34,568 nt of DNA, from positions 1-34,568 of IMG/VR virus record IMGVR_UViG_2740892214_000019; one strand, 5' to 3'. The translations under genes and the position numbers were made by a program. The notes under the pieces were generated by a model. The model saw only the letters and a program-made list of their open reading frames with translations, had not been told where the DNA came from and ran no database searches. The DNA is from a virus (taxonomy: Duplodnaviria; Heunggongvirae; Uroviricota; Caudoviricetes). This document shows, piece after piece, positions 3,536 to 33,665 of this stretch. The stretch's first letter is position 1, and the number at the start of each line of letters is the position of its first letter.

Positions 3536-3676
3536 TGGCTGGGGATTCGTTGGTCCTGGCCTATTCCGCAGTTCTCCATCGGTTCGGCTTCTTTGATGTT
3601 TCCGCTTCTGATTTGCGGTACATGATGTTCCCTCAATTTGCACCTGCTGTATCAGCGAGGTGAGAGATAACTACAA

Positions 3677-5016: not shown

Positions 5017-5124
5017 GGTTATATAGCTAGATCGGAATTGGCGATTCATATATCGGAAATAGTTGGTTAAGAATTTTCTGGAATGATTGTATGCTTTTAC
5101 AACCTATATCGAAGTTCATGTTGG

Positions 5125-16499: not shown

Positions 16500-18401
16500 G
16501 ATAATTTTCAGCTGAAAGCCATCATCACCGCCGTTGACAGGCTGTCCGGCCCGCTTAAAGGTATGCAGCGTCAGCTTAAGGGGTTTCAGAAAGAAGTCTC
16601 CAGCCTTGCTCTGGGCGCTGCCGGGGCGGGTACTGCAATAATGGGGGCACTGGCACTCCCTGTAAAATCAGCCATCACCCTTGAATCGAAGATGGCTGAT
16701 GTCCGCAAAGTGGTGGACGGTCTGGATACGCCGGATGCGTTTAAGGCCATGACGGAGCAGGTACGCGCTTTGTCTACTGAGCTTCCCATGTCTGCAGACG
16801 GGATCGCGGAAATTGTGGCGGCTGGCGGTCAGGCCGGGATTGCACGTGATGAACTGATGCAGTTTGCCACTGATGCGGTGAAGATGGGCGTGGCCTTTGA
16901 TACCACGGCTGAAGAGTCCGGGCAGATGATGGCCCAGTGGCGTACTGCGTTTAATATGACGCAGGATGAAGTGGCCGGGCTGGCTGACAAAATCAACTAC
17001 CTTGGTAATACCGGCCCGGCGAATGCGAAGAAAATCTCCGATATTGTTACGCGTATTGGTCCTTTAGGTGGTGTTGCAGGTGTGGCTTCCGGCGAAATCG
17101 CGGCAATGGGGGCAACCATTGCCGGGATGGGCGTGGAGTCAGAAATTGCCGCCACAGGGATCAAGAACTTCATGCTTTCCCTGACCGCGGGAAATTCCGC
17201 GACAAAATCGCAGAAACAGGCATTACGTTTTCTGCGGATCAATCCGAAGAAATTAGCTGCTGATATGCAGAAAGATGCCCGGGGAACCATGCTGTCTGTA
17301 CTGGATGCGATGGCTAAAGTGCCCAAAGAAAAACAGGCAGCTGTGCTGAATGCCCTGTTCGGGAAAGAGTCTCTGGGCGCGATAGCACCTCTGCTGACTA
17401 ACCTTGATTTGTTGCGTACCAACTTCAGGCGGGTTGCGGATTCCCAGCAGTATGGCAGTTCGATGCAGAAGGAATATGCTTCGAGGGCAGCGACGACGGA
17501 AAACCAGCTTTTACTTCTGCAAAATCAACTTGATGCCATTTCTTCCACGCTGGGGGAAACGTTTCTTCCTGAGGTTAATGATGGTCTTGAAGCGGTAAAA
17601 CCGCTCCTTGAGGAAGTGAGAACGTTTGTCCGTGAAAACCCGGAGCTCGTTAAGACCATTGCTAAAATCGGTCTGGCCTTACTGACGGTGGGAGCCGCTG
17701 CAGGCTCTTTGTCCAGAATTATGAAAGTTCTCGGCGGTGTGATGAATATGACGCCTGCTAAGGGGCTGATTGCTCTTCTGGTTGGTGGCGCTTACCTCAT
17801 TATTGATAACTGGGAAACCGTAGGTCCTGTCATAAAAAAAGTCTGGCACGTGGTGGATGAAACGGCGCAGGCGATGGGGGGATGGGAAACTGTTCTGAAA
17901 GCGATTGCCCTGTTTATGGCAACCAAATGGGTTGCTGACGTTACCAAATCCATTACCGCAGTGACCAGAGAGATGCGTACGCTGGGGAAGGTATCGGCAG
18001 AAACGGGATTGATGGGGAAAGGCCGCGGCTTTATCGGGAAGGCCGGGGTATATGGTTTTCTGGGAACCCTGATGTATGAGCCGGTTAAAGATACTCTGGA
18101 AAGTGTTGTTCCTGAAGATACGGTTAACTGGCTGGAGAATAAAGGGCTGTTTCTGGCTTCAGACTGGACGCCTTTTTTTGATCGTAAAGAGTACGAGCAG
18201 TATCAGGCCAGCCTGAGTCAGTACAAACCCAATGTTCCGCTGTTGAATCCATCTTCTTCCATGACACAGCACAGCGAGCTGAAAGTCACGTTCGAGAATG
18301 CTCCGCCAGGTATGAAGATAATTGATGTACCGGGCAAAGCCGATCCCCTGATGAAAATCACGCACGATGTGGGGTATTCCCCTTTTCGTTTTCCACGATA
18401 A
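16494..18401 (+). CDS. Tail tape measure protein
   Basis: 635 aa, Ala/Gly-rich with coiled-coil and hydrophobic segments. Confidence 0.85.
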   Translation: MADNFQLKAIITAVDRLSGPLKGMQRQLKGFQKEVSSLALGAAGAGTAIMGALALPVKSAITLESKMADVRKVVDGLDTPDAFKAMTEQVRALSTELPMSADGIAEIVAAGGQAGIARDELMQFATDAVKMGVAFDTTAEESGQMMAQWRTAFNMTQDEVAGLADKINYLGNTGPANAKKISDIVTRIGPLGGVAGVASGEIAAMGATIAGMGVESEIAATGIKNFMLSLTAGNSATKSQKQALRFLRINPKKLAADMQKDARGTMLSVLDAMAKVPKEKQAAVLNALFGKESLGAIAPLLTNLDLLRTNFRRVADSQQYGSSMQKEYASRAATTENQLLLLQNQLDAISSTLGETFLPEVNDGLEAVKPLLEEVRTFVRENPELVKTIAKIGLALLTVGAAAGSLSRIMKVLGGVMNMTPAKGLIALLVGGAYLIIDNWETVGPVIKKVWHVVDETAQAMGGWETVLKAIALFMATKWVADVTKSITAVTREMRTLGKVSAETGLMGKGRGFIGKAGVYGFLGTLMYEPVKDTLESVVPEDTVNWLENKGLFLASDWTPFFDRKEYEQYQASLSQYKPNVPLLNPSSSMTQHSELKVTFENAPPGMKIIDVPGKADPLMKITHDVGYSPFRFPR

Positions 18402-18425
18402 CGCAGTCCTTTTTGAGGTCAGTCT

Positions 18426-19802
18426 ATGGATTTATCCTCATTTCCCACCCGACCTTCATTACTTTCGTCGTCTTCAGGCTGGCGTGACAGACTTCAGGAC
18501 GCGTCATTTCGCGGCGTGCCGTTTAAGGTTGAAGAAGAAAGTGCGGGAACCGGTCGCCGTGTGGAAACACATGAATACCCGAACCGCGACAAACCCTATA
18601 CCGAAGACCTGGGGAAAATCACTTTTCGCCCGTCCATCACGGCTTATGTGGTGGGAGATGACTGCTTTGACCAGCGCGATCGCCTGATTGACGCGCTGAA
18701 TAAACCCGGTCCCGGCACGCTTGTCCATCCGACATACGGTGAGCTGAAAGTCTGTGTTGACGGAGAAGTTCGGGTCAGCACATCGAAGAGTGAAGGGCGT
18801 ATTGTCCGCTTTGACCTGAAGTTTGTCGAAGCAGGAGAACTCTCTTACCCCACATCAGGTGCGGCGACGGCGCAGACGCTGATGTCATCCTGTTCTGCAC
18901 TGGATGACTGCATCAGTGACAGCTTCAGCGGTTTCAGTATCGATGGTGTGGCGGATTTCGTGCAGAACGACGTTATCGGTAATGCCAGCATAATGCTGGG
19001 GTATGTTTCTGATGCGATGAAAGTGGTGGATTCTGCCGTATCGGATGCCGCCAGGCTGTTGCAGGGGGATATCTCGGTACTTCTGCCGCCGCCATCGTCA
19101 GGCAAAAATTTCGTTGAGCAGGTGCAGAAAATGTGGCGTACCGGGAAACGCCTTTATGGTAACGCCAGCGACCTGGTCACCATGATCAAAACGCTTTCTG
19201 GTGTCAGCCTCGGCAGCGATTTGCAACCGCGCGGCGTCTGGAAAACGGACAGTAAAACCACCGCCACAGCGACGCAGCAGCGTAACATGGTTGCCAGCAC
19301 CCTTCGTACGACTGCAATCAGCGAAGCGGCGTATGCCGTTACCCGATTGCCTGCGCCAACAACTTCTGCGGTGATGCAGAATGCCGCAGTGGGGCAGTCA
19401 ACAACACCCGCGCAGAGCTCCGGCTGGCCTGCCGTCACGCATCCGGTGCTGAACAATGCACCGGCGGTGAAAAACACGGTTGACCTGCCAACGTGGGAAG
19501 AACTGACCGACATTCGCGACACACTGAATACGGCAATTGATAAGGAGTTGTCCCGTACAACCAGTGATGCGCTGTTTCTGGCTCTGCGCCGGGTGAAAGC
19601 AGATCTGAATGCGGATATCAACACGCGCCTTGAACAGTCTGCTCGGATCATTCAGCGCACGCCGGATGAGGTTTTACCCGCGCTGGTGCTGGCGGCGACC
19701 TGGTTTGATAACGCGGCGCGTGACGCGGACATTATCCGGCGTAATGCCATTACGCATCCCGGCTTTGTGCCGGTGATCCCTCTGAAGGTGCCAGTGCAAT
19801 GA
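18426..19802 (+). CDS. DNA circulation protein (Mu gpN-like)
   Basis: Synteny after the tape measure; 458 aa. Confidence 0.75.
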   Translation: MDLSSFPTRPSLLSSSSGWRDRLQDASFRGVPFKVEEESAGTGRRVETHEYPNRDKPYTEDLGKITFRPSITAYVVGDDCFDQRDRLIDALNKPGPGTLVHPTYGELKVCVDGEVRVSTSKSEGRIVRFDLKFVEAGELSYPTSGAATAQTLMSSCSALDDCISDSFSGFSIDGVADFVQNDVIGNASIMLGYVSDAMKVVDSAVSDAARLLQGDISVLLPPPSSGKNFVEQVQKMWRTGKRLYGNASDLVTMIKTLSGVSLGSDLQPRGVWKTDSKTTATATQQRNMVASTLRTTAISEAAYAVTRLPAPTTSAVMQNAAVGQSTTPAQSSGWPAVTHPVLNNAPAVKNTVDLPTWEELTDIRDTLNTAIDKELSRTTSDALFLALRRVKADLNADINTRLEQSARIIQRTPDEVLPALVLAATWFDNAARDADIIRRNAITHPGFVPVIPLKVPVQ

Positions 19803-20878
19803 ACGACAATGTCACGCTACGGGTAAATGGCCGGGAGTGGAATGGCTGGACATCGGTGCGCATCGGTGCCGGTATTGAACGGCTGGCGCGGGATTTCAGC
19901 GTGGAGATCACCCGCCAGTGGCCGGGAGATGAGGGTATCACCACGCTTCAGCCGCGCATTAAAAATGGTTCAAAAGTGGAAGTGCTGATTGGTGATGAGC
20001 TGGTGATCACCGGCTGGGTGGAGGCGACCCCCGTTCGTTACGATGCCCGTTCGGTCAGCACCGGTATTGCCGGACGTAGTCTGACTGCTGACCTGATTGA
20101 CTGTGCAGCCGAACCGACACAGTTTAACGGACGATCGCTGGTACAGATTGCGCAGGCGCTTGCTGCGCCTTTCGGCATTGAGGTGGTGAACAGCGATGCG
20201 CCGTCGGGTGTTATTCCGGATGTCCAGCCTGATCACGGTGAAACGGTGATCGAGGTGATCAACAAAATACTCGGTCAGCAGCAGGCGCTGGCTTATGACG
20301 ACCCGCACGGCAGGCTGGTGATTGGTGGTGTTGGCTCAACGCGGGCACATACCGCGCTGGTACTTGGGGAAAACATCCTTTCCTGTGATACGGAGAAGAG
20401 TATCCGGGAGCGGTTTTCAGTTTACCAGGTGGCGGGGCAGCGTGCCGGAAACGACGATGATTTCGGTGAGGCCACCACCACCGCGCTGCGGGCCCGCACA
20501 GAGGATGCATTTATTGCCCGTTACCGTCCGATGTATATCAGGCAGACAGGGCAGGCTACGGGGGCAGGCTGTATTGCCCGTGCGGACTTTGAAGCCAGAC
20601 AACGGGCGGCGCGGACGGATGAAACCACCTATGTGGTGCAGGGCTGGCGACAGGGTAACGGTACGCTGTGGCAGCCCAACCAGCGGGTGATTGTCTTTGA
20701 TCCGGTCTGTGGTTTCGACAATACCGAACTGCTTGTTTCGGAAGTCACGTTCACTCAGGACCAGAACGGCACCCTGACGGAAATCCGTGTCGGCCCGCCT
20801 GATGCTTATCTGCCTGAACCCGAAGCCCCCGGCGCGCGGAAAAAGAAAAAAACCAGAGTACAGGAGGACCCGTTCTGA
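19799..20878 (+). CDS. Baseplate hub protein (Mu gpP-like)
   Basis: Synteny; 359 aa. Confidence 0.75.
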   Translation: MNDNVTLRVNGREWNGWTSVRIGAGIERLARDFSVEITRQWPGDEGITTLQPRIKNGSKVEVLIGDELVITGWVEATPVRYDARSVSTGIAGRSLTADLIDCAAEPTQFNGRSLVQIAQALAAPFGIEVVNSDAPSGVIPDVQPDHGETVIEVINKILGQQQALAYDDPHGRLVIGGVGSTRAHTALVLGENILSCDTEKSIRERFSVYQVAGQRAGNDDDFGEATTTALRARTEDAFIARYRPMYIRQTGQATGAGCIARADFEARQRAARTDETTYVVQGWRQGNGTLWQPNQRVIVFDPVCGFDNTELLVSEVTFTQDQNGTLTEIRVGPPDAYLPEPEAPGARKKKKTRVQEDPF

Positions 20879-21426
20879 TGAGGACGATTGAAGCCATGCA
20901 GCGACAACTCCTCGGCCTGATTGGGCGGGCCGTGGTGAAAAGCATCAGTGCCGCCACGAAATGTCAGACCGTGGATGTGTCCCTGATTGCCGGTGAACCC
21001 AAAGCCGGGGTTGAACATCTTGAACCCTACGGTTTTACCGCAAGGGCAAACAGCGGTGCGGAAGCGGTGGTGTTGTTTCCGGATGGCGACCGTTCTCATG
21101 CGGTGGTTGTTACGGTGTCGGACCGGCGCTACCGCCTGAAAGGGCTGCAGACGGGGGAGGTGGCTGTCTATGACGATCAGGGGCAGTCCGTGACGCTGAC
21201 CCGGGAGGGGATCGTGGTGGACGGTGCAGGTAAAACGATCACGTTTCGCAATTCACCTAAAGCACGTTTTGAAATGGACCTGGAAGTGACAGGACAGGTG
21301 AAAGACCTGTGCGACTCCGGCGGCACCACCATGTCAGCGATGCGGCTTGCCTATAACGGGCATCGTCACAGAGAGAACGGTCAGGGCAGTAACACCGACA
21401 AACCTGATAAAGCGATGGAGGCATGA
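20878..21426 (+). CDS. Baseplate spike protein (Mu gp45 / P2 V-like)
   Basis: 182 aa; contains a DSGGTT-type motif seen in V/gp45 spikes. Confidence 0.7.
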   Translation: MRTIEAMQRQLLGLIGRAVVKSISAATKCQTVDVSLIAGEPKAGVEHLEPYGFTARANSGAEAVVLFPDGDRSHAVVVTVSDRRYRLKGLQTGEVAVYDDQGQSVTLTREGIVVDGAGKTITFRNSPKARFEMDLEVTGQVKDLCDSGGTTMSAMRLAYNGHRHRENGQGSNTDKPDKAMEA

Positions 21427-21851
21427 TGGAACTGTGGCTGACGGTGAACGGTAAACGCACCTGCGCCAGCGCACCGCTGGATCCGCTGACCCGCGCCGTG
21501 GTGATTTCCCTGTTTACCTGGCGGCGGGCGGAGCCTGATGACAACGCCGACGTCCCGATGGGATGGTGGGGGGATACCTGGCCTGCGGTACAGAATGACC
21601 GTTACGGCTCCCGACTGTGGCTGCTTCAGCGCAGCAAATTGACCAATCAGCTGGTGCAGACGGTAAGGGGGTATATCCGCGAATGCCTGCAATGGATGAT
21701 TGATGATGGCGTGGTGTCCCGTATTGATCTGGATATCCGCCGCACCGGGATTAATGAACTGGGTAACAGTATCACTCTCTGGCGTCGTGACGGACCGGTA
21801 ATGATTTCTTTTGATGATCTGTGGAGTGCGATAACGCATGGCGGACAGTGA
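21423..21851 (+). CDS. Baseplate wedge protein (Mu gp46 / P2 W-like)
   Basis: Synteny and size (142 aa). Confidence 0.65.
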   Translation: MMELWLTVNGKRTCASAPLDPLTRAVVISLFTWRRAEPDDNADVPMGWWGDTWPAVQNDRYGSRLWLLQRSKLTNQLVQTVRGYIRECLQWMIDDGVVSRIDLDIRRTGINELGNSITLWRRDGPVMISFDDLWSAITHGGQ

Positions 21852-22896
21852 ATTTCAGCGCCCGACGCTGGCAGAAAATATCAGTATGCTCCGTAACGAT
21901 TTATTCGCCAGGCTGGACGTCAGCGACACGCTCCGGCGCATGGATGAAGACGTGCGGGCAAAGGTGTATGCGGCGGCGCTGCATACGGTTTACGGGTACA
22001 TCGATTATCTGGCAATGAATATGCTGCCTGACCTGTGCGATGAGTCCTGGCTGGCGCGACATGCTGCGATGAAACGGTGTCCGCGCAAGGGGGCCACGGC
22101 TGCCAGCGGGTATATGCGCTGGGAAGGTGTCAGCGATGGCCTGAAGGTGACTGCCGGGAGCGTGATTCAGCGCGATGACCTGGTTCAGTACACGGCAACT
22201 GCCGATGCAACCAGCTCCGGTGGTGTCCTGCGCGTGCCGATCGCCTGCTCAAGTGCAGGCGCGGTCGGTAACGCTGACGACGGTACGTCATTAATCCTGG
22301 TCACGCCGGTGAATGGTCTGCCGTCTTCCGGTGTTGCAGATACCCTGACTGGCGGATTCGATACTGAAGATCTGGAAACGTGGCGCGCCCGCGTCATTGA
22401 GCGGTATTACTGGACGCCGCAGGGCGGGGCTGACGGGGACTATGTCGTCTGGGCTAAAGAAGTGCCCGGCATTACCCGCGCATGGACATACCGTCACTGG
22501 ATGGGAACGGGAACTGTCGGTGTGATGATTGCCAGCAGTGACCTGATTAATCCCATTCCGGAAGAATCAACGGAAACGGCGGCAAGACAACATATCGGGC
22601 CACTGGCCCCGGTGGCAGGCTCTGATTTGTATGTGTTCAGGCCGGTGGCGCATACGGTGGATTTTCATATCCGTGTGACGCCGGATACACCAGAAATACG
22701 GGCTGCCATCACCGCCGAGTTGCGTTCGTTCCTGCTGCGTGATGGTTATCCGCAGGGAGAACTGAAGGTGTCGCGTATCAGTGAAGCGATTTCCGGTGCG
22801 AACGGGGAATACAGCCATCAGTTGCTTGCACCGGCAGACAATATCTCCATTGCAAAAAATGAACTGGCGGTACTGGGGACGATTTCATGGACGTGA
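21838..22896 (+). CDS. Baseplate J-like protein (Mu gp47)
   Basis: 352 aa; synteny. Confidence 0.8.
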
Positions 22897-23471
22897 CAAA
22901 CGATGATTACATCCGTCTGTTGTCGGCACTGTTGCCCCCCGGTCCGGCGTGGTCAGCCAGCGATCCGGCGATTGCCGGTGCGGCACCGTCATTAACCCGC
23001 GCTCATCAGCGTGCGGATGCCCTGATGCGGGAGCTGGATCCGCGCACCACCACTGAACTGATAAACCGCTGGGAGCGTCTGTGCGGTCTGCCGGATGAAT
23101 GTATTCCGGCGGGAACGCAGACCCTTCGCCAGCGCCAGCAACGGCTGGATGCGAAGGTTAACCTGGCGGGCGGCATCAACGAGGATTTTTATCTTGCACA
23201 GCTTGCTGCCCTGGGCAGACCAGATGCCACCATCACGCGATACGACAAAAGCACGTTCACCTGCTCATCGGCCTGTACTGACGCGGTGAATGCGCCGGAA
23301 TGGCGGTATTACTGGCAGGTCAACATGCCAACCACCACCAACACCACCTGGATGACATGTGGCGATCCCTGTGATTCCGCACTGCGTATCTGGGGCGACA
23401 CCGTTGTCGAGTGTGTGCTTAACAAACTCTGCCCGTCGCATACCTACGTAATTTTTAAATATCCGGAGTAA
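22887..23471 (+). CDS. Baseplate/tail protein (Mu gp48 / P2 I / YmfQ-like)
   Basis: 194 aa directly upstream of the fibre gene. Confidence 0.7.
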
Positions 23472-23474
23472 TCC

Positions 23475-24098
23475 ATGCATCGTATAGACACGAAAACCGC
23501 GCAGAAGGATAAGTTCGGCGCGGGTAAGAACGGTTTTACCCGTGGTAACCCCCAGACCGGCACGCCTGCCACCGATCTGGATGATGACTACTTTGACATG
23601 TTGCAGGAGGAGCTTTGCAGCGTGGTGGAGGCATCCGGTGCCAGTCTGGAGAAGGCGCGGCACGACCAGCTGCTTACCGCGCTTCGTGCGCTGCTGTTAA
23701 GCCGCAAGAATCCGTTTGGCGATATCAAATCGGATGGCACGGTGAAAACGGCCCTCTCAAATCTTGGTTTGGGCGAAGCGGCGAAACGAGATGTCGGAAC
23801 AGGTGCTAACCAACTACCAGACATGTCTGCATGGACCAGTGGTAGTGGGTGGGTAAAGTTTCCAGACGGGACAATTATTCAGAGCGGGAGGACAACCATG
23901 GCGGCAGGACAGATTGCGGTAAGGACGCTGCCAATCCCTTTTACTACCTCAGGCTATATTGTTCTTGCTTCGTTCTGGGGTTCAGATCCCTCACCTTCAA
24001 AACCAGTTGGCGTGTCGTCAGCTGATCTTTCAACAATCCGAATTGCCAACTGGAGCACTCCAGCAGCAGAAATTGCCTGGATAGCCATAGGGAAATAA
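23475..24098 (+). CDS. Tail fibre protein, constant N-terminus plus currently expressed variable C-terminus
   Basis: [10 protein letters not shown]... N-terminus typical of short S/Stf-type fibres; the inversion crossover site lies inside the gene near codon 95. Confidence 0.75.
23753..23778. repeat. Left inversion crossover site (gix/hix/pix-like)
   Basis: CTCTCAAATCTTGGTTTGGGCGAAG is in inverted orientation to the site at 25589-25614 and shares the TTGGTTTGGG-GAA half-site. Confidence 0.5.
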
Positions 24099-24100
24099 AT

Positions 24101-24547
24101 ATGACCAAATACAGATACTCAGCAGTTACAAACGAATTTTTCCCTTACTCCCTTAAGGATAGCTACCTGGCAAGCGGGCAATGGCCTGATGAGGGAGTCG
24201 ATTTTGATGAGGACGGATTTATCTCCTGGAAAGCAGAAAATGCACCGGATGGCAAGATACGTGCAGCAGGGAATGATGGCTTCCCTGAATGGGTAGATGA
24301 ACCTGAACCGACTCACGAAGAACTTGTTAGAACTGCTGACGCCGAAAAAAGGTCCCGTATTGAGCAGGCTAACTATTATATCAATAGTAAGCAGTGGCCC
24401 GGTAAAGCCGCTATTGGTCGTCTGAAAGGTGACGAACTGGCGCAATATAATTTGTGGCTGGATTATCTGGACGCACTGGAACTGGTTGATACTTCCAGTG
24501 CGCCGGATATTGAATGGCCTACGCCTCCGGCAGTTCAGGCCAGATGA
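24101..24547 (+). CDS. Tail fibre assembly chaperone (Tfa)
   Basis: Tfa-typical N-terminus and C-terminal IEWPTPP motif. Confidence 0.85.
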   Translation: MTKYRYSAVTNEFFPYSLKDSYLASGQWPDEGVDFDEDGFISWKAENAPDGKIRAAGNDGFPEWVDEPEPTHEELVRTADAEKRSRIEQANYYINSKQWPGKAAIGRLKGDELAQYNLWLDYLDALELVDTSSAPDIEWPTPPAVQAR

Positions 24548-25121
24548 CATCCGGCGCGGTGCTGGTATCTGTTGCCGCCACCGCGTCAATGTAATCCAGC
24601 ACAGCGTTAAGCCGGGTTGTTTCTGCCTGCGTCAGTTTCCGCCCGGCCTGTAATTTCAGCTGAATCAGACTAATGGAAGCCATTGCTGCATCAATCAGTG
24701 ACTGGCGCTGTGCTTCTGCCGCTTCTACTGCGGCACCGTGTTGTGCCTCAGTATCTGTCACCCATTTCTCACCATCCCATTTATCGTATGGCGTTAATGG
24801 GGCGATAGTGGTTGTATTTTCAGGGTAATCACCCGGAGCTGTGATTTCTTTTGATTCTCCTGTTTCAGTGCTATATACCGTTTCACCACGGTGGTCTGGC
24901 ACATATACCCATGAGTTAAAATCTGCAGAACGGCAGATTGCATAACCAGCTTTATATGGGTCAGGAGCATCTAAACAGGAGCATGCCGGGATTCCTACGC
25001 CAACGGCAAGATATTCTGTTGATGATGAAATGTATTCCCGTGTCGTGTTGTCATAGCTATAGACGGTAATATCACCCGCTACTGTGGCAATAAATTCACT
25101 GTTTAATTTTGCCTGTGTCAT
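24519..25121 (-). CDS. Alternative tail fibre assembly chaperone (Tfa')
   Basis: C-terminal VIWPELP motif; convergent with the plus-strand Tfa. Confidence 0.85.
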   Translation of the reverse strand: MTQAKLNSEFIATVAGDITVYSYDNTTREYISSSTEYLAVGVGIPACSCLDAPDPYKAGYAICRSADFNSWVYVPDHRGETVYSTETGESKEITAPGDYPENTTTIAPLTPYDKWDGEKWVTDTEAQHGAAVEAAEAQRQSLIDAAMASISLIQLKLQAGRKLTQAETTRLNAVLDYIDAVAATDTSTAPDVIWPELPEA

Positions 25122-25642
25122 TATGCGGCCCTCACGATGTAGTTAAATGCGACGTTTCGCGGGCGGTTTTCTGGTGCTGTAGGCACAACTCTGGAAGCAT
25201 CAAAACTACCAGACAAAGGTCTTGTATCAGCGCCACCTCCAGCACTAGTGATAGGTTGTATAGTTTCGTTACTCCCCGCAAAGGCACCTGACAATTGACT
25301 TAAAGCCCCAGCTGTTGAGCCATTATTCAATACCGAAATGATACCGGTGATATTTCTAATTGCATCGCCCTGAGAGGAAAGCAAACTCCTCGCAGAATCA
25401 ATCCCGCGTCCGTCATCCCAACCGCGTAGAAACTCACCACGTAAATCAGGCAATTTATTTGTCGGATAAACTTTTGCCAGTTCCGGGTATTCTTCAGCAG
25501 AAAAAGCCGCACCATTGCATTTCAGCCAGCCTGTTGGCGGAGTGGCTGAAGGCCACGGAACAGGCACACCAACGGGTAATGCCGAACCTTCTCCCAAACC
25601 AACGTTTATGAAAATGCAGAGATAACGGGCAACTGGCATCAT
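25121..25642 (-). CDS. Alternative tail fibre C-terminal segment, expressed only after inversion
   Basis: Contains the fibre-tip motif PVGVPVPWP...GWLKCNGAAFS..YPELAKVYP; the ORF's apparent N-terminus crosses the right crossover site, so it has no independent start. Confidence 0.7.
   Translation of the reverse strand: MMPVARYLCIFINVGLGEGSALPVGVPVPWPSATPPTGWLKCNGAAFSAEEYPELAKVYPTNKLPDLRGEFLRGWDDGRGIDSARSLLSSQGDAIRNITGIISVLNNGSTAGALSQLSGAFAGSNETIQPITSAGGGADTRPLSGSFDASRVVPTAPENRPRNVAFNYIVRAA
25589..25614. repeat. Right inversion crossover site (gix/hix/pix-like)
   Basis: TTCTCCCAAACCAACGTTTATGAAAA, a 26-bp imperfect dyad resembling Hin/Gin sites, about 50 bp upstream of the invertase start. 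Confidence 0.6.
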
Positions 25643-25663
25643 CTCCGGTTTTTATTCAGGGGG

Positions 25664-26263
25664 ATGCTCATGCTTATTGGCTATGTACGCGTGTCAACAA
25701 ATGACCAGAACACGGAATTGCAGCGTAACGCGCTGGAGTGTGCAGGATGTGAGCTGATTTTTGAGGATAAAATCAGCGGCACGAAGTCCGACCGACCGGG
25801 ACTGAAAAAACTGCTCAGAACATTATCAGCAGGTGACACTCTGGTGGTCTGGAAGCTGGACAGGCTGGGGCGTAGTATGCGGCATCTGGTCATTCTGGTT
25901 GAGGAGCTGCGCGAACGCGGCGTTAATTTTCGCAGCCTGACGGATGCTATTGATACCAGCACGCCGATGGGGCGCTTTTTCTTTCATGTGATGGGTGCCC
26001 TGGCTGAAATGGAGCGAGAACTCATTGTCGAGCGGACACGCGCCGGACTGGAAGCGGCCAGAGCCAAAGGTCGTATTGGTGGCAGACGACCGAAACTCAC
26101 CACGAGTGAGTGGGAGCAGGTCGGACGGTTGCTGGCTGCGGGGGAATCTCGTCAACGTGTGGCGCTGATTTTTGATATTGGCCTGTCCACGCTCTATAAA
26201 AAATTCCCCTCATCAGCGACAAAGAATAAATTGTGTCATCCCTTAGCCAACCGGGACAAATAG
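25664..26263 (+). CDS. Serine DNA invertase (Gin/Pin/Hin/Cin family)
   Basis: N-terminal LIGYVRVST(N)DQ catalytic motif and C-terminal helix-turn-helix; small resolvase/invertase size. Start may be the second ATG at 25670. Confidence 0.9.
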   Translation: MLMLIGYVRVSTNDQNTELQRNALECAGCELIFEDKISGTKSDRPGLKKLLRTLSAGDTLVVWKLDRLGRSMRHLVILVEELRERGVNFRSLTDAIDTSTPMGRFFFHVMGALAEMERELIVERTRAGLEAARAKGRIGGRRPKLTTSEWEQVGRLLAAGESRQRVALIFDIGLSTLYKKFPSSATKNKLCHPLANRDK

Positions 26264-26322
26264 CCTGACATCTCCGGCACAACTGAAAATACCACTCACC
26301 CATTAACCACGGAGTTAAACGG

Positions 26323-27513
26323 ATGAGTGACTATCATCACGGCGTGCAGGTGCTGGAGATTAACGACGGCACCCGCGTCATTTCCACCGTATCCACTGCC
26401 ATTGTCGGCATGGTCTGCACGGCCAGCGATGCGGATGCGGAAACCTTCCCCCTCAATAAACCTGTGCTGATTACCAATGTGCAGAACGCAATTGCAAAGG
26501 CCGGTAAAAAAGGCACGCTGGCGGCATCGTTGCAGGCCATCGCTGACCAGTCAAAACCGGTCACCGTTGTCGTGCGCGTGGAAGACGGCACCGGTGATGA
26601 CGAGGAAACGAAACTCGCGCAGACCGTTTCCAATATCATCGGCACCACCGACGAAAACGGTCAGTACACCGGACTGAAAGCCCTGCTGGCGGCGGAGTCG
26701 GTAACTGGTGTTAAACCGCGTATTCTCGGCGTGCCGGGACTGGACACCAAAGAGGTGGCGGTTGCACTGGCATCAGTCTGTCAGAAGCTGCGCGCTTTCG
26801 GGTATATCAGCGCATGGGGCTGTAAAACCATTTCCGAGGTGAAAGCCTACCGCCAGAATTTCAGCCAGCGTGAGCTGATGGTCATCTGGCCGGATTTCCT
26901 CGCATGGGATACGGTCGCCAGTACCACCGCCACCGCGTATGCCACCGCCCGTGCGCTGGGTCTGCGCGCTAAAATCGACCAGGAGCAGGGCTGGCATAAA
27001 ACGCTGTCCAACGTCGGGGTGAACGGTGTTACCGGAATCAGCGCGTCCGTATTCTGGGATTTGCAGGAGTCCGGCACCGATGCTGACCTGCTTAACGAGT
27101 CAGGCGTCACAACGCTGATTCGCCGTGACGGTTTCCGCTTCTGGGGTAACCGTACCTGCTCTGATGACCCGCTGTTCCTCTTTGAAAACTACACCCGCAC
27201 CGCGCAGGTGCTGGCCGACACGATGGCTGAGGCGCACATGTGGGCGGTGGACAAGCCCATCACCGCAACGCTGATTCGCGACATCGTTGACGGCATCAAT
27301 GCCAAATTCCGTGAGTTGAAAACAAACGGCTATATCGTGGATGCGACCTGCTGGTTCAGCGAAGAATCCAACGATGCGGAAACCCTCAAGGCCGGAAAAC
27401 TGTATATCGACTACGACTATACACCGGTACCTCCTCTTGAAAACCTGACCCTGCGCCAGCGTATTACCGATAAATACCTGGCGAATCTGGTCACCTCGGT
27501 TAACAGCAATTAA
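26323..27513 (+). CDS. FI: P2-type tail sheath protein
   Basis: 396 aa; near-identical along its length to P2 gpFI as I recall it. Confidence 0.93.
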   Translation: MSDYHHGVQVLEINDGTRVISTVSTAIVGMVCTASDADAETFPLNKPVLITNVQNAIAKAGKKGTLAASLQAIADQSKPVTVVVRVEDGTGDDEETKLAQTVSNIIGTTDENGQYTGLKALLAAESVTGVKPRILGVPGLDTKEVAVALASVCQKLRAFGYISAWGCKTISEVKAYRQNFSQRELMVIWPDFLAWDTVASTTATAYATARALGLRAKIDQEQGWHKTLSNVGVNGVTGISASVFWDLQESGTDADLLNESGVTTLIRRDGFRFWGNRTCSDDPLFLFENYTRTAQVLADTMAEAHMWAVDKPITATLIRDIVDGINAKFRELKTNGYIVDATCWFSEESNDAETLKAGKLYIDYDYTPVPPLENLTLRQRITDKYLANLVTSVNSN

Positions 27514-27525
27514 GGAGCCTGACCG

Positions 27526-28044
27526 ATGGCAATGCCGCGCAAACTCAAGTTAATGAACGTCTTTCTGAACGGCTACAGCTATCAGGGCGTTGCAAAGTCC
27601 GTCACGCTGCCAAAACTGACCCGTAAGCTCGAAAACTATCGCGGTGCGGGGATGAACGGCAGCGCACCGGTAGACCTCGGCCTTGATGACGATGCGCTGT
27701 CAATGGAGTGGTCGCTCGGTGGCTTCCCGGATTCGGTTATCTGGGAGCTTTACGCCGCAACCGGTGTGGATGCCGTACCGATTCGTTTTGCAGGCTCTTA
27801 CCAGCGCGACGATACCGGCGAAACGGTGGCCGTCGAGGTGGTCATGCGTGGACGTCAGAAAGAAATCGACACCGGCGAGGGCAAACAGGGAGAAGACACC
27901 GAGTCGAAAATCTCCGTGGTCTGCACCTATTTCCGGCTGACGATGGACGGTAAGGAGCTGGTCGAAATCGACACCATCAACATGATTGAGAAGGTGAACG
28001 GCGTCGACCGGCTGGAGCAACACCGCCGCAATATCGGCCTGTGA
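27526..28044 (+). CDS. FII: P2-type tail tube protein
   Basis: 172 aa; matches P2 gpFII. Confidence 0.93.
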   Translation: MAMPRKLKLMNVFLNGYSYQGVAKSVTLPKLTRKLENYRGAGMNGSAPVDLGLDDDALSMEWSLGGFPDSVIWELYAATGVDAVPIRFAGSYQRDDTGETVAVEVVMRGRQKEIDTGEGKQGEDTESKISVVCTYFRLTMDGKELVEIDTINMIEKVNGVDRLEQHRRNIGL

Positions 28045-28100
28045 TTTTCATCCGGTCAGTCTGGCTGACCGGTTAACCCCGATTCAGAAGTGAGAAAACC

Positions 28101-28376
28101 ATGAACAAAGAAAACGTCATTACCCTGGACAATCCGGTCAAACGTGGTGAGCAGGTTATCGAACAGATCACGCTGATGAAACCCAATGCCGGGACGCTGC
28201 GCGGTGTCAGTCTGGCTGCAGTCGCGAACTCCGAAGTCGATGCACTGATTAAAGTGCTGCCGCGCATGACGGCACCGATGCTGACCGAGCAGGAAGTCGC
28301 CGCGCTGGAACTGCCTGACCTTGTGGCGCTGGCCGGTAAGGTGGTCGGTTTTTTGTCGCCGAACTCGGTGCAGTGA
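28101..28376 (+). CDS. E: P2-type tail assembly chaperone
   Basis: 91 aa; slippery T TTT TTG at 28349-28355 near the 3' end. Confidence 0.9.
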   Translation: MNKENVITLDNPVKRGEQVIEQITLMKPNAGTLRGVSLAAVANSEVDALIKVLPRMTAPMLTEQEVAALELPDLVALAGKVVGFLSPNSVQ

Positions 28377-28528
28377 CGTTTCCGAAAAATCTCTCGGTCG
28401 ATGACCTGATGGCGGATGTGGCAGTGATATTTCACTGGCCGCCATCAGAACTGTATCCCATGAGCCTGACCGAACTCATCACATGGCGCGAAAAGGCGCT
28501 CCGGCGAAGTGGAAACACGAATGAGTAA
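28101..28528 (+). CDS. E': P2-type E+E' programmed -1 frameshift product
   Basis: After the slip the -1 frame is open to TAA at 28526-28528, overlapping the T start. Confidence 0.75.
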
Positions 28529-30968
28529 CAATGTAAAATTACAGGTATTGCTCAGGGCTGTTGACCAGGCATCCCGCCCGTTTAAATCCATCCGCACAGC
28601 GAGCAAGTCGCTGTCGGGGGATATCCGGGAAACACAAAAATCACTGCGCGAGCTGAACGGTCACGCATCCCGTATTGAGGGATTCCGCAAGACCAGCGCA
28701 CAGCTCGCCGTGACTGGTCATGCACTTGAAAAGGCTCGGCAGGAAGCAGAAGCCCTTGCCACACAGTTTAAAAACACCGAACGTCCGACCCGTGCTCAGG
28801 CGAAAGTGCTGGAATCCGCAAAGCGTGCGGCGGAGGACTTACAGGCGAAATATAACCGCCTGACGGATTCCGTTAAACGCCAGCAGCGGGAACTGGCCGC
28901 TGTGGGAATTAATACCCGCAATCTTGCACATGATGAGCAGGGACTGAAAAACCGTATCAGTGAAACCACCGCACAGCTTAACCGTCAGCGCGACGCGCTG
29001 GCGCGTGTCAGTGCGCAACAGGCAAAACTTAACGCAGTCAAACAGCGTTATCAGGCCGGAAAGGAGCTGGCCGGAAATATGGCCTCAGTGGGCGCTGCCG
29101 GTGTGGGGATTGCAGCGGCGGGAACGATGGCCGGTGTTAAGCTACTGATGCCCGGTTATGAGTTTGCGCAGAAAAACTCAGAATTGCAGGCCGTGCTAGG
29201 TGTGGCAAAAGACTCCGCCGAAATGGCCGCACTCCGCAAGCAGGCGCGCCAGCTCGGCGACAATACCGCCGCCTCGGCAGATGATGCAGCCGGTGCGCAG
29301 ATTATTATTGCGAAAGCCGGTGGGGATGTTGATGCCATTCAGGCGGCAACGCCGGTCACGCTGAACATGGCGCTGGCGAACCGCCGCACGATGGAAGAAA
29401 ACGCCGCCCTGTTGATGGGGATGAAATCCGCCTTTCAGCTTTCAAACGATAAGGTCGCTCATATCGGGGATGTTCTCTCCATGACGATGAACAAAACCGC
29501 CGCCGATTTTGACGGTATGAGCGATGCGCTGACCTATGCTGCACCTGTGGCAAAAAATGCCGGTGTCAGCATTGAAGAAACCGCCGCAATGGTCGGGGCG
29601 CTGCATGATGCAAAAATTACCGGTTCAATGGCGGGGACGGGAAGCCGTGCCGTGTTAAGTCGCCTGCAGGCACCGACGGGAAAAGCATGGGATGCACTCA
29701 AAGAGCTTGGCGTGAAAACCTCAGACAGTAAGGGGAATACCCGACCAGTATTTACCATTCTGAAAGAAATGCAGGCCAGTTTTGAGAAAAACCGGCTCGG
29801 TACTGCCCAGCAGGCTGAATACATGAAAACCATTTTCGGGGAGGAGGCCAGCTCAGCCGCCGCCGTGCTGATGACTGCCGCCTCAACCGGAAAGCTGGAC
29901 AAACTGACCGCTGCGTTTAAAGCCTCAGACGGGAAGACCGCCGAGCTGGTAAATATCATGCAGGACAACCTCGGCGGTGACTTTAAGGAGTTTCAGTCCG
30001 CTTATGAGGCGGTGGGGACAGACCTGTTTGACCAGCAGGAAGGCGCGCTGCGTAAGCTCACGCAGACGGCCACAAAGTATGTGTTAAAACTCGACGGCTG
30101 GATACAGAAAAACAAATCACTGGCGTCAACCATTGGCCTCATTGCCGGTGGCGCGCTGGCGCTTACTGGCATCATCGGTGCAATTGGTCTTGTTGCCTGG
30201 CCGGTTATCACCGGCATCAATGCCATCATCGCGGCAGCAGGCGCAATGGGGGCAATCTTCACGACGGTTGGTAGTGCCGTTATGACGGCTATCGGGGCGA
30301 TTAGCTGGCCGGTTGTGGCCGTGGTGGCTGCAATTGTCGCCGGGGCGTTGCTTATCCGTAAATACTGGGAGCCTGTCAGCGCATTCTTTGGCGGTGTGGT
30401 GGAAGGGCTGAAAGCGGCATTTGCGCCGGTGGGGGAACTGTTCACGCCACTTAAGCCGCTGTTTGACTGGCTGGGTGAAAAGTTACAGGCCGCGTGGCAG
30501 TGGTTTAAAAACCTGATTGCCCCCGTCAAAGCCACCCAGGACACCCTGAACCGTTGCCGTGACACGGGTGTCATGTTCGGGCAGGCACTGGCTGACGCGT
30601 TGATGCTGCCGCTTAATGCGTTCAACAAACTGCGCAGCGGTATTGACTGGGTACTGGAAAAACTCGGCGTTATCAACAAAGAGTCAGGCACGCTTGACCA
30701 GACCGCCGCCAGAACTCATGCCGCCACGTATGGCACCGGTGGTTATATTCCGGCGGCCAGCTCTTATGCAGGTTATCAGGCTTATCAGCCGGTCACGGCA
30801 CCGGCTGGCCGCTCTTATGTGGACCAGAGTAAAAACGAATATCACATCAACCTGACGGGCGGTACTGCGCCGGGGACACAGCTCGACCGCCAGTTACAGG
30901 ATGCACTCGAAAAATACGAGCGGGATAAACGTGCGCGCGCCCGTGCCAGCATGATGCATGACGGTTAA
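28521..30968 (+). CDS. T: P2-type tail tape measure protein
   Basis: Matches P2 gpT starting MSNNVKLQ; the track's 28509 start is a GTG, the ATG is at 28521. Confidence 0.9.
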   Translation: MSNNVKLQVLLRAVDQASRPFKSIRTASKSLSGDIRETQKSLRELNGHASRIEGFRKTSAQLAVTGHALEKARQEAEALATQFKNTERPTRAQAKVLESAKRAAEDLQAKYNRLTDSVKRQQRELAAVGINTRNLAHDEQGLKNRISETTAQLNRQRDALARVSAQQAKLNAVKQRYQAGKELAGNMASVGAAGVGIAAAGTMAGVKLLMPGYEFAQKNSELQAVLGVAKDSAEMAALRKQARQLGDNTAASADDAAGAQIIIAKAGGDVDAIQAATPVTLNMALANRRTMEENAALLMGMKSAFQLSNDKVAHIGDVLSMTMNKTAADFDGMSDALTYAAPVAKNAGVSIEETAAMVGALHDAKITGSMAGTGSRAVLSRLQAPTGKAWDALKELGVKTSDSKGNTRPVFTILKEMQASFEKNRLGTAQQAEYMKTIFGEEASSAAAVLMTAASTGKLDKLTAAFKASDGKTAELVNIMQDNLGGDFKEFQSAYEAVGTDLFDQQEGALRKLTQTATKYVLKLDGWIQKNKSLASTIGLIAGGALALTGIIGAIGLVAWPVITGINAIIAAAGAMGAIFTTVGSAVMTAIGAISWPVVAVVAAIVAGALLIRKYWEPVSAFFGGVVEGLKAAFAPVGELFTPLKPLFDWLGEKLQAAWQWFKNLIAPVKATQDTLNRCRDTGVMFGQALADALMLPLNAFNKLRSGIDWVLEKLGVINKESGTLDQTAARTHAATYGTGGYIPAASSYAGYQAYQPVTAPAGRSYVDQSKNEYHINLTGGTAPGTQLDRQLQDALEKYERDKRARARASMMHDG

Positions 30969-30982
30969 GGAGGTGACGAAAA

Positions 30983-31462
30983 ATGATGCTCGCGTTAGGT
31001 ATGTTTGTTTTTATGCGCCAGACGCTGCCACACCAGACCATGCAGCGTGAATCAGATTATCGCTGGCCGTCAAATTCCCGTATCGGTAAACGGGATGCCT
31101 ACCAGTTTCTCGGTGTGGGTGAGGAAAACATTACGCTTGCCGGTGTGCTTTATCCTGAACTGACCGGCGGAAAGCTGACGATGACCACGCTCAGACTGAT
31201 GGCAGAGGAAGGCCGGGCGTGGCCGTTGCTGGATGGCACCGGAATGATTTACGGCATGTATGTCATCAGCAGGGTGAGTGAAACAGGGAGTATTTTCTTT
31301 GCAGACGGCACACCCCGGAAAATTGATTTTACGCTGTCGCTCACCCGCGTTGATGAATCACTGGCCGCGCTTTATGGCGATATCGGTAAACAGGCGGAGT
31401 CGCTCATCGGTAAGGCCGGCAGTCTGGCGACCAGATTCACAGGTATGATGGGGGCGGGATAA
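30983..31462 (+). CDS. U: P2-type tail protein
   Basis: Matches P2 gpU in size and sequence. Confidence 0.9.
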   Translation: MMLALGMFVFMRQTLPHQTMQRESDYRWPSNSRIGKRDAYQFLGVGEENITLAGVLYPELTGGKLTMTTLRLMAEEGRAWPLLDGTGMIYGMYVISRVSETGSIFFADGTPRKIDFTLSLTRVDESLAALYGDIGKQAESLIGKAGSLATRFTGMMGAG

Positions 31463-32625
31463 TGCTGGATGCGCTGACATTTGATGCAGGCAGTACGCTG
31501 ACGCCGGATTACATGCTGATGCTCGACAGCAGGGATATTACCGGCAATATCAGCGACCGTCTGATGAGCATGACTCTGACGGATAACCGGGGCTTTGAAG
31601 CTGACCAGCTTGATATTGAACTGAACGATGCCGACGGGCAGGTCGGGCTGCCGGTTCGTGGCGCTGTCCTGACGGTGTATATCGGCTGGAAAGGTTTTGC
31701 CCTGGTATGCAAAGGGAAATTTACCGTTGATGAGGTTGAACACCGGGGCGCACCGGATGTGGTCACCATCCGCGCCCGGAGTGCAGATTTTCGTGGGACG
31801 CTCAATTCCCGCCGTGAAGGCTCCTGGCATGACACCACGCTCGGTGCGATTGTTGAGGCGATAGCCTCCCGTAACAGGCTGGAAGCCAGTGTCGCTCCGT
31901 CACTGGCCGGAATTAAAATCCCGCACATCGACCAGTCGCAGGAGTCTGATGCAAAATTCCTGACCCGCCTTGCTGAACGCAACGGCGGTGAGGTGTCGGT
32001 AAAAATGGGAAAACTGTTGTTTCTCAAAGCGGGGCAGGGGGTGACGGCCAGCGGTAAAAAAATCCCGCAGATTACCATCACCCGCAGCGACGGCGACCGT
32101 CATCATTTTGCGATTGCTGACCGTGGAGCCTATACCGGCGTAACGGCAAAGTGGCTTCACACCAAAGACCCGAAGCCGCAAAAGCAGAAGGTAAAACTGA
32201 AACGCAAAAAGAAAGAAAAACACCTGCGCGCACTGGAGCACCCAAAAGCGAAACCGGTCAGGCAGAAGAAAGCGCCAAAAGTACCGGAAGCGCGCGAAGG
32301 TGAATATATGGCCGGTGAGGCTGACAATGTTTTTGCCCTGACCACGGTATATGCCACGAAAGCGCAGGCCATGCGCGCCGCTCAGGCGAAGTGGGATAAA
32401 CTGCAACGGGGCGTTGCGGAGTTCTCCATCAGCCTGGCTACCGGTCGGGCAGATATTTACACGGAAACACCGGTTAAAGTGTCAGGCTTTAAGCGCGTCA
32501 TAGACGAGCAGGACTGGACAATCACTAAGGTGACACATTTTCTGAATAATAGCGGCTTCACGACGTCCCTGGAGCTTGAGGTCAGGCTTTCTGATGTGGA
32601 GTACGAAACAGAAGATGATGAGTGA
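31462..32625 (+). CDS. D: P2-type late control / tail protein
   Basis: 387 aa; matches P2 gpD. Confidence 0.9.
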   Translation: MLDALTFDAGSTLTPDYMLMLDSRDITGNISDRLMSMTLTDNRGFEADQLDIELNDADGQVGLPVRGAVLTVYIGWKGFALVCKGKFTVDEVEHRGAPDVVTIRARSADFRGTLNSRREGSWHDTTLGAIVEAIASRNRLEASVAPSLAGIKIPHIDQSQESDAKFLTRLAERNGGEVSVKMGKLLFLKAGQGVTASGKKIPQITITRSDGDRHHFAIADRGAYTGVTAKWLHTKDPKPQKQKVKLKRKKKEKHLRALEHPKAKPVRQKKAPKVPEAREGEYMAGEADNVFALTTVYATKAQAMRAAQAKWDKLQRGVAEFSISLATGRADIYTETPVKVSGFKRVIDEQDWTITKVTHFLNNSGFTTSLELEVRLSDVEYETEDDE

Positions 32626-32706
32626 TGTTTTTATTTTATCTGTTTGTTTTATAAGGATAATTTAACTAAAATGGCACCATCAACAAAACCGGAAGAGGTG
32701 CTCGCG

Positions 32707-32925
32707 ATGTTTCATTGTCCTTTATGCCAGCATGCCGCACATGCGCGTACAAGCCGCTATATCACTGACACGACAAAAGAGCGTTATCATCAGTGCCAGA
32801 ACGTGAATTGTAGTGCCACGTTCATCACTTATGAGTCGGTACAGCGATACATCGTGAAGCCGGGAGAAGTCCACGCCGTAAGGCCGCACCCGTTGCCGTC
32901 AGGGCAGCAAATTATGTGGATGTAA
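32707..32925 (+). CDS. ogr: Ogr zinc-finger late-gene transcriptional activator
   Basis: 72 aa starting MFHCPLCQHAAHARTSRYI with a four-Cys zinc finger; the upstream in-frame extension from 32644 is not used. Confidence 0.9.
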   Translation: MFHCPLCQHAAHARTSRYITDTTKERYHQCQNVNCSATFITYESVQRYIVKPGEVHAVRPHPLPSGQQIMWM

Positions 32926-32935
32926 TTACAAACAG

Positions 32936-32959
32936 GAAGCCCCTCAGTCGAGGGGCTTT
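32936..32959. terminator. Bidirectional stem-loop (AAGCCCCTC, loop, GAGGGGCTT) after ogr
   Basis: Read directly; followed by TTTCAACTTTGTTT. It also lies just 3' of the minus-strand 32977-33378 gene. Confidence 0.55.
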
Positions 32960-32976
32960 CAACTTTGTTTAGGAGC

Positions 32977-33378
32977 TTATTTCCCTGTGTAAAGACGTGT
33001 TTGGGATGAAAGTAACACTTGCCCCTGTTTAGGCGTCAACGAACCTATTTCATTGCATGTTTTTAATGGTTCGGAAAAAACATAACCGATGGATTTATAT
33101 TGATTAACTATGCTTATTTCTTTGATTTTTTTGAGATATGAAACAGGCGTGTCTTTTGTCCAGACTGGTGCGCATACACCAGTCATAATCAGGTTGTTGT
33201 AGGCGTCAGGAGAGATTTCTTTGCCAGGAAGCACCACCGTAAGCGAGTTGTTTTTATTCGTGATTTCTAGGGGTTGCCATGGTTTAAGCTGCTTTTGAAG
33301 GGTTTTAATATCATTCGCGTTTGCGTTGAGTGAAATTATTAAGGTGGCTATTGCCATCACTGATTTAAGAGTTGCCAT
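32977..33378 (-). CDS. Small secreted/periplasmic protein of unknown function (133 aa, two Cys)
   Basis: N-terminal signal peptide with LNANA cleavage region; AAGGA RBS about 7 nt upstream; AT-rich by eye. Confidence 0.6.
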   Translation of the reverse strand: MATLKSVMAIATLIISLNANANDIKTLQKQLKPWQPLEITNKNNSLTVVLPGKEISPDAYNNLIMTGVCAPVWTKDTPVSYLKKIKEISIVNQYKSIGYVFSEPLKTCNEIGSLTPKQGQVLLSSQTRLYTGK

Positions 33379-33438
33379 AGAAAATCCTTAATAAACATTT
33401 GGTTGAGTAAAATTCATACCTCCAAAAAGAGGAAAAAT

Positions 33439-33463
33439 AAAGCCCCATGTGCTTAGGGGCTTT
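33439..33463. terminator. Hairpin AAAGCCCC, 9-nt loop, GGGGCTTT
   Basis: Read directly; the U-rich flank is on the minus-strand side. Confidence 0.4.
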
Positions 33464-33557
33464 CAGTAGTCGATGTGGACGCTATGTGGACAGTGTTTGA
33501 TATAAATCCATTTATATCATCAGGTTAGGTGCATTTTTGTGACACCATCCCTGTCTT

Positions 33558-33584
33558 CCCCCACATGATGTGGGGGTTTTTTTT
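33558..33584 (+). terminator. Strong intrinsic terminator (CCCCCACA, TGA loop, TGTGGGGG, then T8) upstream of fieF
   Basis: Read directly; resembles what I recall of the cpxP 3' end / CpxQ sRNA terminator, unverified. Confidence 0.7.
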
Positions 33585-33665
33585 ATCCTCAATTTGCCTG
33601 CTGCTTAATGCATTGCAGATGATTTGCTTCCGTTATACTACCGTCAGTTGATAGCGGGAGTATTT

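Follow-up and report, generated by a model that had tools for sequence, protein, structure and literature searches.

The window analysed here, a stretch of 34,568 nucleotides, corresponds to bases 1-34568 of the 42,985-bp contig BBUW01000035.1 from the multi-contig assembly GCA_001592595.1; window base 1 is the start of the contig, and the two sets of coordinates coincide. Its first part (1-24064, plus strand) derives from an SfV-like prophage and carries alleles specific to the SfV-like copy of a repeat described below. It comprises a lambdoid late-control region with a Q antiterminator (1564-1932, plus strand), lysis genes, an HK97-type head, a Mu-type contractile tail, a baseplate and the 5' part of a tail fibre gene. 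Gene calls and Pfam matches on the source contig give the head module the order HNH-terminase-portal-protease-capsid, and the terminase, portal, S78 protease and HK97-fold capsid are followed by tail and baseplate genes resembling Mu gp39-48, the arrangement that defines an SfV-like prophage. The union of an HK97-family head with a contractile tail has been described for this group (PMC3851460), in which we include SfV, SfII, SfIV, SfI, SKA5, vB_EcoM-720R4 and the prophage at dusA in E. coli MS1679. Across head, tail and baseplate the window is 97% identical to the Shigella phages, the tail genes of SfV, SfIV and SKA5 likewise being 97% identical to it, and 99.3% identical to the MS1679 prophage over 3699-24519 (20.8 kb). 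Four further SfV-like loci (L018, L020, L021 and L023) differ from it at only 1 to 8 positions over 13475-24519 (11,045 bp), with five differences in L018 and a single one in L021.

The Mu-type tail set, recognized from Pfam matches to the gene calls of the source contig and from the PGAP annotation of the MS1679 prophage, consists of the sheath (14237-15733), tube (15733-16089), tail chaperone (16086-16409) and tape measure (16494-18401), all on the plus strand, with the families PF17481/PF04984/PF17482, PF10618, PF10109 and PF10145 over 14237-18401. It is followed by a Mu-type baseplate block (18426-23471, plus strand; PF07157, PF06890, PF04865, PF10076 and gene calls) encoding a DNA circularisation protein (DNA_circ_N), a Gp44/P-like protein (GpP-like), Gp45, Gp46, Gp47 (Baseplate_J) and Gp48. 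An initial sequence-only reading of the window had seen two complete sets of sheath, tube, chaperone and tape-measure genes (14237-18401, Mu-type; 26323-30968, P2-type) and a single baseplate; the Pfam matches on the source contig bear out the former, and DNA_circ_N, GpP-like, Mu Gp45, GP46, Baseplate_J and Mu Gp48, all of Mu type, account for the latter. Its preferred assignment of the baseplate to the Mu-type side also holds.

At the other end of the window lies a P2-type late tail module (26323-32925, plus strand), assigned from Pfam matches on the source contig and from PF04606 and 97% identical to P2-type phages. It contains FI (26323-27513), FII (27526-28044) followed by E/E', T (28521-30968), U (30983-31462), D (31462-32625) and ogr (about 32707-32925), all on the plus strand and in the order FI-FII-E/E'-T-U-D-ogr annotated in fiAA91-ss; the families PF04984, PF04985, PF10109, PF06528 and PF10145 cover the set at 26323-30968. 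The P2-like prophage L013 is 100% identical across the entire module. The window does not hold a complete P2-like prophage, with V, W, J, I, H, the head genes and the upstream lysis genes being absent from it. The module is succeeded by a 133-aa ORF (32977-33378, minus strand), for which no Pfam or PADLOC match was found, and by the host gene fieF (33666-34568, plus strand; PF01545, PF16916), which is 99.9% identical to E. coli chromosomes annotated with this gene and bounds on the right the cpxP/fieF site at which P2-like prophages integrate. Among the P2-like prophages at this site, the 133-aa ORF is present in L007-L013 and absent from L006 and L016, which makes it variable cargo of the prophage end.

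Between these two parts lies a fibre locus with an invertible segment. The tail fibre gene (23475-24098, plus strand; 207 aa, PF21882) has a constant N-terminal part specific to SfV-like phages and, past the left crossover site, a Gp53-like_C variable part common to the SfV-like phage and the P2-like prophage. Adjacent to it is the tail fibre assembly gene tfa (24101-24547, plus strand; PF02413) in its P2-side version of 148 aa; gene calls give this length for P2-like loci, against 146 aa for those of MS1679 type. On the opposite strand are an alternative tail fibre assembly gene, tfa' (24519-25121, minus strand; 200 aa, PF02413), which lies inside the invertible segment and whose exact protein is shared by complete P2-like prophages at fieF and by L014, and an alternative fibre C-terminus with a Collar domain (25121-25642, minus strand; PF07484). 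The locus thus offers two fibre C-termini in opposite orientation, Gp53-like_C with Tfa on the plus strand and Collar with Tfa' on the minus strand, and inversion fuses the Collar-domain end to the constant part of the fibre gene. The segment of 1.85 kb is flanked by the inverted repeat I4 (23759-23778 and 25588-25607, 1,809 bp apart), which overlies two 26-bp crossover sites, the left one at 23752-23777 on the minus strand (reverse complement TTCGCCCAAACC AA GATTTGAGAGGG) and the right one at 25589-25614 on the plus strand (TTCTCCCAAACC AA CGTTTATGAAAA). The two have TTC.CCCAAACC-AA in common, and one of them adjoins the invertase gene.

This gene (25670-26263, plus strand) encodes a Gin-type serine DNA invertase of 197 aa from the second ATG, or 199 aa from 25664. 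It has the domain architecture of a small serine recombinase, a resolvase catalytic domain whose catalytic serine is close to the N-terminus, followed by an HTH (PF00239, E = 2.8e-52; PF02796), and aligns with the structure of Mu Gin (3uj3) over residues 1-182 with E = 1e-93, the YVRVSTNDQ motif included. Unlike Mu Gin, it is extended at the C-terminus by 15 residues, which read into the P2 backbone upstream of FI. Its affinities lie with the P2 lineage: it is 97% identical in amino acid sequence to the invertase of pro483, as against 54% to the 187-aa invertases of SKA5 and L014 found in some SfV-like prophages, and its gene is 100% identical in nucleotide sequence to that of L013. It is hence not the end of the Mu-type tail, as had been supposed, and its C-terminal tail, once regarded as odd and as a sign of a recombination joint, is the same in pro483.

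Because the flipped state occurs in the P2-like prophage L010, the segment is a working Gin-type switch. L010 holds the same segment inverted between 23764 and 25605, with a P2 H protein of 509 aa bearing the Collar domain, and in both L010 and L027 the exchange point is at the central AA of the crossover site. A serine recombinase, inverted sites, alternative fibre ends and the occurrence of both orientations are the features shared by the Gin, Hin, Pin and Cin systems. As in the G segment of Mu with Gin and its relatives (Cin of P1, Pin of e14 and Hin of Salmonella), there is a small serine recombinase acting with 26-bp inverted sites that have a central AA, and, as in the G segment itself, a segment of 1.85 kb carries two fibre C-termini and two oppositely oriented tfa genes, both orientations being found in nature. 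The content of the segment differs from that of Mu in being another mosaic (Gp53-like_C/Collar). Invertible fibre loci in P2-like prophages of E. coli have been reported to flip within clonal cultures, yielding mixed orientations (PMC4272514).

Two observations concern this cassette in other SfV-like elements. L014 (9351-11722 in GCA_045951145.1, at dusA) and L001 (phage SKA5) are SfV-like with their own 187-aa invertase, and L014 holds the invertible segment of the window (23400-25607 compared) at 99% identity, the identity stopping exactly in the core of the right crossover site. In MS1679-type relatives the fibre gene retains the left crossover site, but there is neither a right site nor an invertase, and their fibre is therefore locked.

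Comparison with the two phage groups indicates how the parts of the window are related. P2-like prophages with an invertible cassette include pro483, a prophage of T22 O157:H43 deposited as 'Escherichia phage P2' (Peduovirus magyaro), and those at cpxP/fieF in strain 98-3133 and in GCA_965258235.1, the last being identical to the window over 24065-33640. These prophages share with the window the order tfa, tfa', alternative fibre end, invertase, 59-bp spacer, FI, FII, E, T, U, D, ogr, fieF; in the window, however, SfV-like genes replace lysis, R, S, V, W, J, I and the constant part of H. SfV-like phages, for their part, end in fibre-tfa-(own 187-aa invertase)-dinI-int at dusA or a tRNA gene, whereas the window runs into P2 sequence. 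The window is thus best described as a composite of an SfV-like prophage with a Mu-type tail and the FI-to-ogr end of a P2-like prophage, and both parents are ordinary E. coli prophages. A Mu-type/P2-type composite had been proposed at the outset, and to that extent the proposal stands, two phages being joined; the breakpoint it named was wrong, the real one lying at 24065-24519 inside tfa.

The two parents meet in a direct repeat of 766 bp (23754-24519, plus strand) that is common to the SfV-like prophage at dusA and the P2-like prophage at fieF and contains the variable fibre C-terminus and tfa. When the copies in L018 and L027, which lie in the same complete chromosome, are compared, they are 99.2% identical, with 6 mismatches (23757, 23760, 23762, 23890, 23991 and 24064), all at or before 24064, and the last 455 bp are exact. 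From the right, uninterrupted identity to invertase-bearing P2-like prophages extends as far as 23754, taking in the spacer, the invertase, the right crossover site and all of the invertible segment; L013 is 99.889% identical to the window over the 10,815 bp of 23754-34568, with 0 differences in 24065-33640. From the left, SfV-like prophages with the fibre-tfa-dinI-int ending at dusA match the window only up to 24519. Within the repeat, the alleles at 23890/23991/24064 are G/T/C in the window and in the 10 MS1679-type SfV-like loci covering these positions, as opposed to A/G/G in 9/11 of the P2-like loci that cover them. Because the alleles are of SfV type up to 24064 and the sequence is of P2 type past 24519, the switch from SfV-like to P2-like can be placed within 24065-24519 (plus strand), 455 bp of tfa over which both parent types are identical to the window. 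The join makes no new protein, as the 207-aa fibre and the 148-aa Tfa each have a parental sequence. The interior of the window (24500-25420) found matches of 93% at best in RefSeq and phage collections, and the close relatives of this interior and of both halves were recovered through exact-protein look-ups. Some P2-type H proteins (P0001 and P0003-P0005) carry the SfV-type residues R392 and/or S426, which correspond to window positions 23890 and 23991; they may reflect a natural exchange of patches between the two copies of the cassette, or may be additional products of chimeric assembly.

The behaviour of other assemblies at this repeat is informative. The contig BBUW01000035.1 starts in a late-control module (179-aa ORF) found in varied prophage contexts, and the contigs of two other assemblies start at exactly the same point; at the join the contig has no Ns. 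A contig of the sister assembly GCA_001592545.1 is 100.000% identical to it over 16,519 bp, including 8 kb of host flank in which other strains differ by about 0.8%, and the sister contig breaks off at window position 24450, 70 bp within the repeat. Contigs of three further assemblies end at 23792, 24484 and 24521. Assemblers, in other words, regularly fail at the fibre-cassette repeat. A query spanning the join (21000-28400), which catches either orientation of the segment, is not covered beyond 60% by any complete RefSeq E. coli genome, so that the join is absent, in either segment orientation, from all 5,426 of them. Look-ups for further chimeras used tfa', the fibre, P2 T, the Mu-type sheath, the GpP-like protein and the left-end ORF, and among the contigs displayed only BBUW01000035.1 has the join; one more contig, of similar neighbourhood, could be another chimera or simply a sister contig whose start lies within the repeat. 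With each of two proteins from the SfV side, all 24 contigs read show the normal dusA ending, and the exact 207-aa fibre protein in particular is in its normal dusA context in 24/24 contigs read. The SfV-like prophage on BBUR01000003.1, from a neighbouring WGS prefix and with the same rare sheath variant, likewise ends normally at dusA. The exact P2 H protein sequence is present on 44 contigs.

The geometry of the two prophages can be read from the single-contig chromosome GCA_949764985.1, in which both are intact, on the same strand and in direct orientation, with their repeat copies at about 3,504,289 and 3,713,156, 209 kb apart. The gene ftsN is just to the right of fieF and plsB just to the left of the dusA prophage, both lying between the attachment sites. 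A simple deletion between the prophages can be set aside: with the P2-like prophage upstream and both in direct orientation it would give P2 on the left and SfV on the right, and it would span ftsN and plsB, which lie between the attachment sites. The pairing in the window is the opposite, SfV on the left, P2 on the right and then fieF. This order is possible only as the joint of a tandem duplication, as an excised circle, as the insertion of a phage into a resident prophage, or in silico.

The analysis shows which parent each side comes from, in which interval the breakpoint falls, what repeat the two parents share, which contig the window belongs to and how other assemblies behave at the repeat; what we infer from this is that the join was probably made by the assembler and not in the cell. 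We favour this origin because the switch lies in an exact repeat, at which a sister assembly of identical sequence breaks. The strain would carry both prophages intact, about 209 kb apart, like its closest completely assembled relative, and the assembler would have entered the repeat in its SfV-like copy and left it on the P2-like side. A contributing factor may have been the heterogeneity caused by inversion, which would lower the coverage of the link from P2 H to the segment; the link from the SfV-like fibre gene would stay at full coverage, and a coverage-based choice of branch would favour the SfV entry. Against an assembler origin, the contig reads through the join without Ns, read pairs exceeding 455 bp would normally rule out such an error, and the P2-type H proteins with SfV-type R392 and S426 indicate that real cassette exchange may occur.

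The main rival, which we hold to be possible though on the unlikely side, is that the join is real and arose by RecA-type homologous recombination within the 766-bp shared fibre cassette. Two routes can be envisaged: an unequal exchange between sister chromosomes, giving a tandem duplication of ~209 kb whose novel joint would read SfV-left/P2-right/fieF, or one crossover that inserts a circular SfV-like genome into the P2-like prophage already present, giving nested prophages. The breakpoint lies within 455 bp of exact homology, which is ample for RecA; the prophages are in direct orientation, and the joint of a duplication would show exactly the order of the window; the contig is continuous through the join; and residues 392 and 426 of SfV type in P2-type H proteins suggest exchange between the copies. 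However, the join is found in 0/5,426 complete genomes in either orientation of the segment, the sister assembly of identical sequence breaks at the repeat, the SfV-like prophage of BBUR01000003.1 has the normal dusA ending, and both the fibre and Tfa remain parental, with no new protein created. Moreover, large tandem duplications are unstable without selection. Taken as a statement about the DNA itself, that an SfV-like prophage is physically linked through the fibre cassette to a P2-like tail end, as the joint of a ~209-kb duplication or in a nested arrangement, the join is in our view unlikely to be real.

That the Gin-type invertase joined the phages site-specifically at their left crossover sites, thereby moving the segment, the invertase and the P2 tail end together, is highly improbable. 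It would account for the beginning of P2-type identity at 23754, at the left crossover site, and it accords with the boundaries of the L014 cassette, which also coincide with crossover sites, and with the use of secondary sites in the aberrant inversion of GCA_949764985.1. Nevertheless, alleles of SfV type at 23890, 23991 and 24064 reach up to 300 bp into the segment, where 9 of the 11 P2-like loci have A/G/G; the exchange therefore did not take place at the crossover site, which effectively rules this mechanism out. The sites would, in addition, be directly oriented and 209 kb apart, and invertases of the Gin/Hin type disfavour sites that are directly oriented and far apart.

The least credible explanation is an illegitimate or short-homology joint near 26200-26322, by which a Mu-type tail with its own invertase would have been fused to a truncated P2 remnant without V, W, J, I, H and G: the absence of P2 baseplate genes from the window and the start of homology to invertase-less P2-type phages at 26231-26243 speak for it, yet complete invertase-bearing P2-like prophages are 100% identical there and back to 24065, the invertase is of the P2-lineage type (97% versus 54%), and the same 59-bp spacer is present in pro483, 98-3133 and L028. 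This was in essence the sequence-only reading, which had put the joint at 25664-26322 and, more narrowly, at 26200-26322. It had correctly noted that FI starts at 26323, 59 bp after the stop of the invertase ORF (25664-26263), and that V, W, J, I and H are missing from the window. The idea of a truncated P2 remnant finds no support, the P2-like prophage being complete in the closest relatives and the join sitting in an exact repeat of a draft contig. A joint at the 3' end of the invertase is rejected on the evidence of L013, a complete P2-like prophage that is 100% identical through this region and on to 24065. P2-like identity, which continues uninterrupted leftward through the proposed region to 23754, takes in the invertase and the variable fibre cassette and does not extend to the baseplate. 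The real switch lies upstream of the invertase gene, and the joint had been misplaced by ~1.1-1.6 kb relative to the region as a whole and by 1.7-2.3 kb relative to 26200-26322; this placement is explained by the point at which homology to canonical, invertase-less P2-type phages begins.

This point, 26243 in comparison with AVS0578 and 26231 with fiAA91-ss and P2, is only the edge of a variable slot between G and FI. The slot is occupied by orf20 at the Z/fun position in fiAA91-ss, by nothing in AVS0578, and by half of the invertible cassette together with the invertase in the invertase-bearing P2-like lineage. The spacer between invertase and FI (26264-26322, plus strand; 59 bp) is native to these prophages, with the same 59-bp spacing in pro483, 98-3133 and L028. 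The order tfa'-H'-invertase-59 bp-FI is native in pro483, the T22 'P2' and strain 98-3133, and tfa'-H'-invertase-FI-FII is contiguous in 146/5,426 complete E. coli genomes. Hence the succession of invertase, 59 bp and FI is the normal layout of a sub-lineage of P2-like prophages and not a recombination joint.

Whether made by the assembler or by recombination, the locus holds nothing new. Prophage-prophage homologous recombination is known, for example from rearrangements between lambdoid prophages in O157:H7, and the exchange of fibre cassettes among unrelated phages, like rearrangements and misassemblies at prophage repeats, is well known from the literature on the fibres of P2, Mu and P1. 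The window resembles both repeat-induced chimeric contigs and products of prophage-prophage recombination in having its breakpoint in an exact repeat of co-resident prophages with no new sequence. It does, however, carry a caution. Tail-fibre cassettes common to unrelated prophages form exact repeats of several hundred bases, and the invertible ones are in mixed orientation within a culture, so that draft assemblies break there or join the wrong partners. A misjoined contig then resembles a hybrid phage or a truncated remnant, and a prophage census based on such contigs would include a spurious P2 remnant as well as a spurious chimera. A real join would add one more case of prophage-prophage recombination via fibre genes, as known for decades, in which an SfV-like fibre that is locked in its closest relatives would be switched by the Gin-type invertase of a P2 phage.

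An irregular form of the invertase region was observed in L027 (7081-7927; GCA_949764985.1, window-equivalent 25601-26447), a complete chromosome in which an inversion takes in the invertase gene together with the initial 124 nt of FI. At its junctions the exchange falls precisely on the central AA/TT and links the right crossover site to a quasi-site inside FI (GCGGAAACC-TT-CCCCCTCAAT), and FI is called there with 349 aa rather than 396 aa. The event has the appearance of an aberrant Gin-type inversion, one that disables the sheath gene.

Two loci in the SfV-like part of the window are also of note. Three ORFs on the minus strand (1968-3643; 153, 313 and 87 aa) lie between the Q antiterminator and the holin, and none of them has a significant Pfam or PADLOC match; in the related prophages L040 and L042 the same slot between Q and the holin holds KwaA/KwaB (Kiwa). 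Between the lysis genes and the HNH/terminase genes, a plus-strand gene (5083-5994) encodes a trypsin-like peptidase of 303 aa (PF13365), which matches the PADLOC candidate defence family PDC-S45 (E = 5.8e-42).
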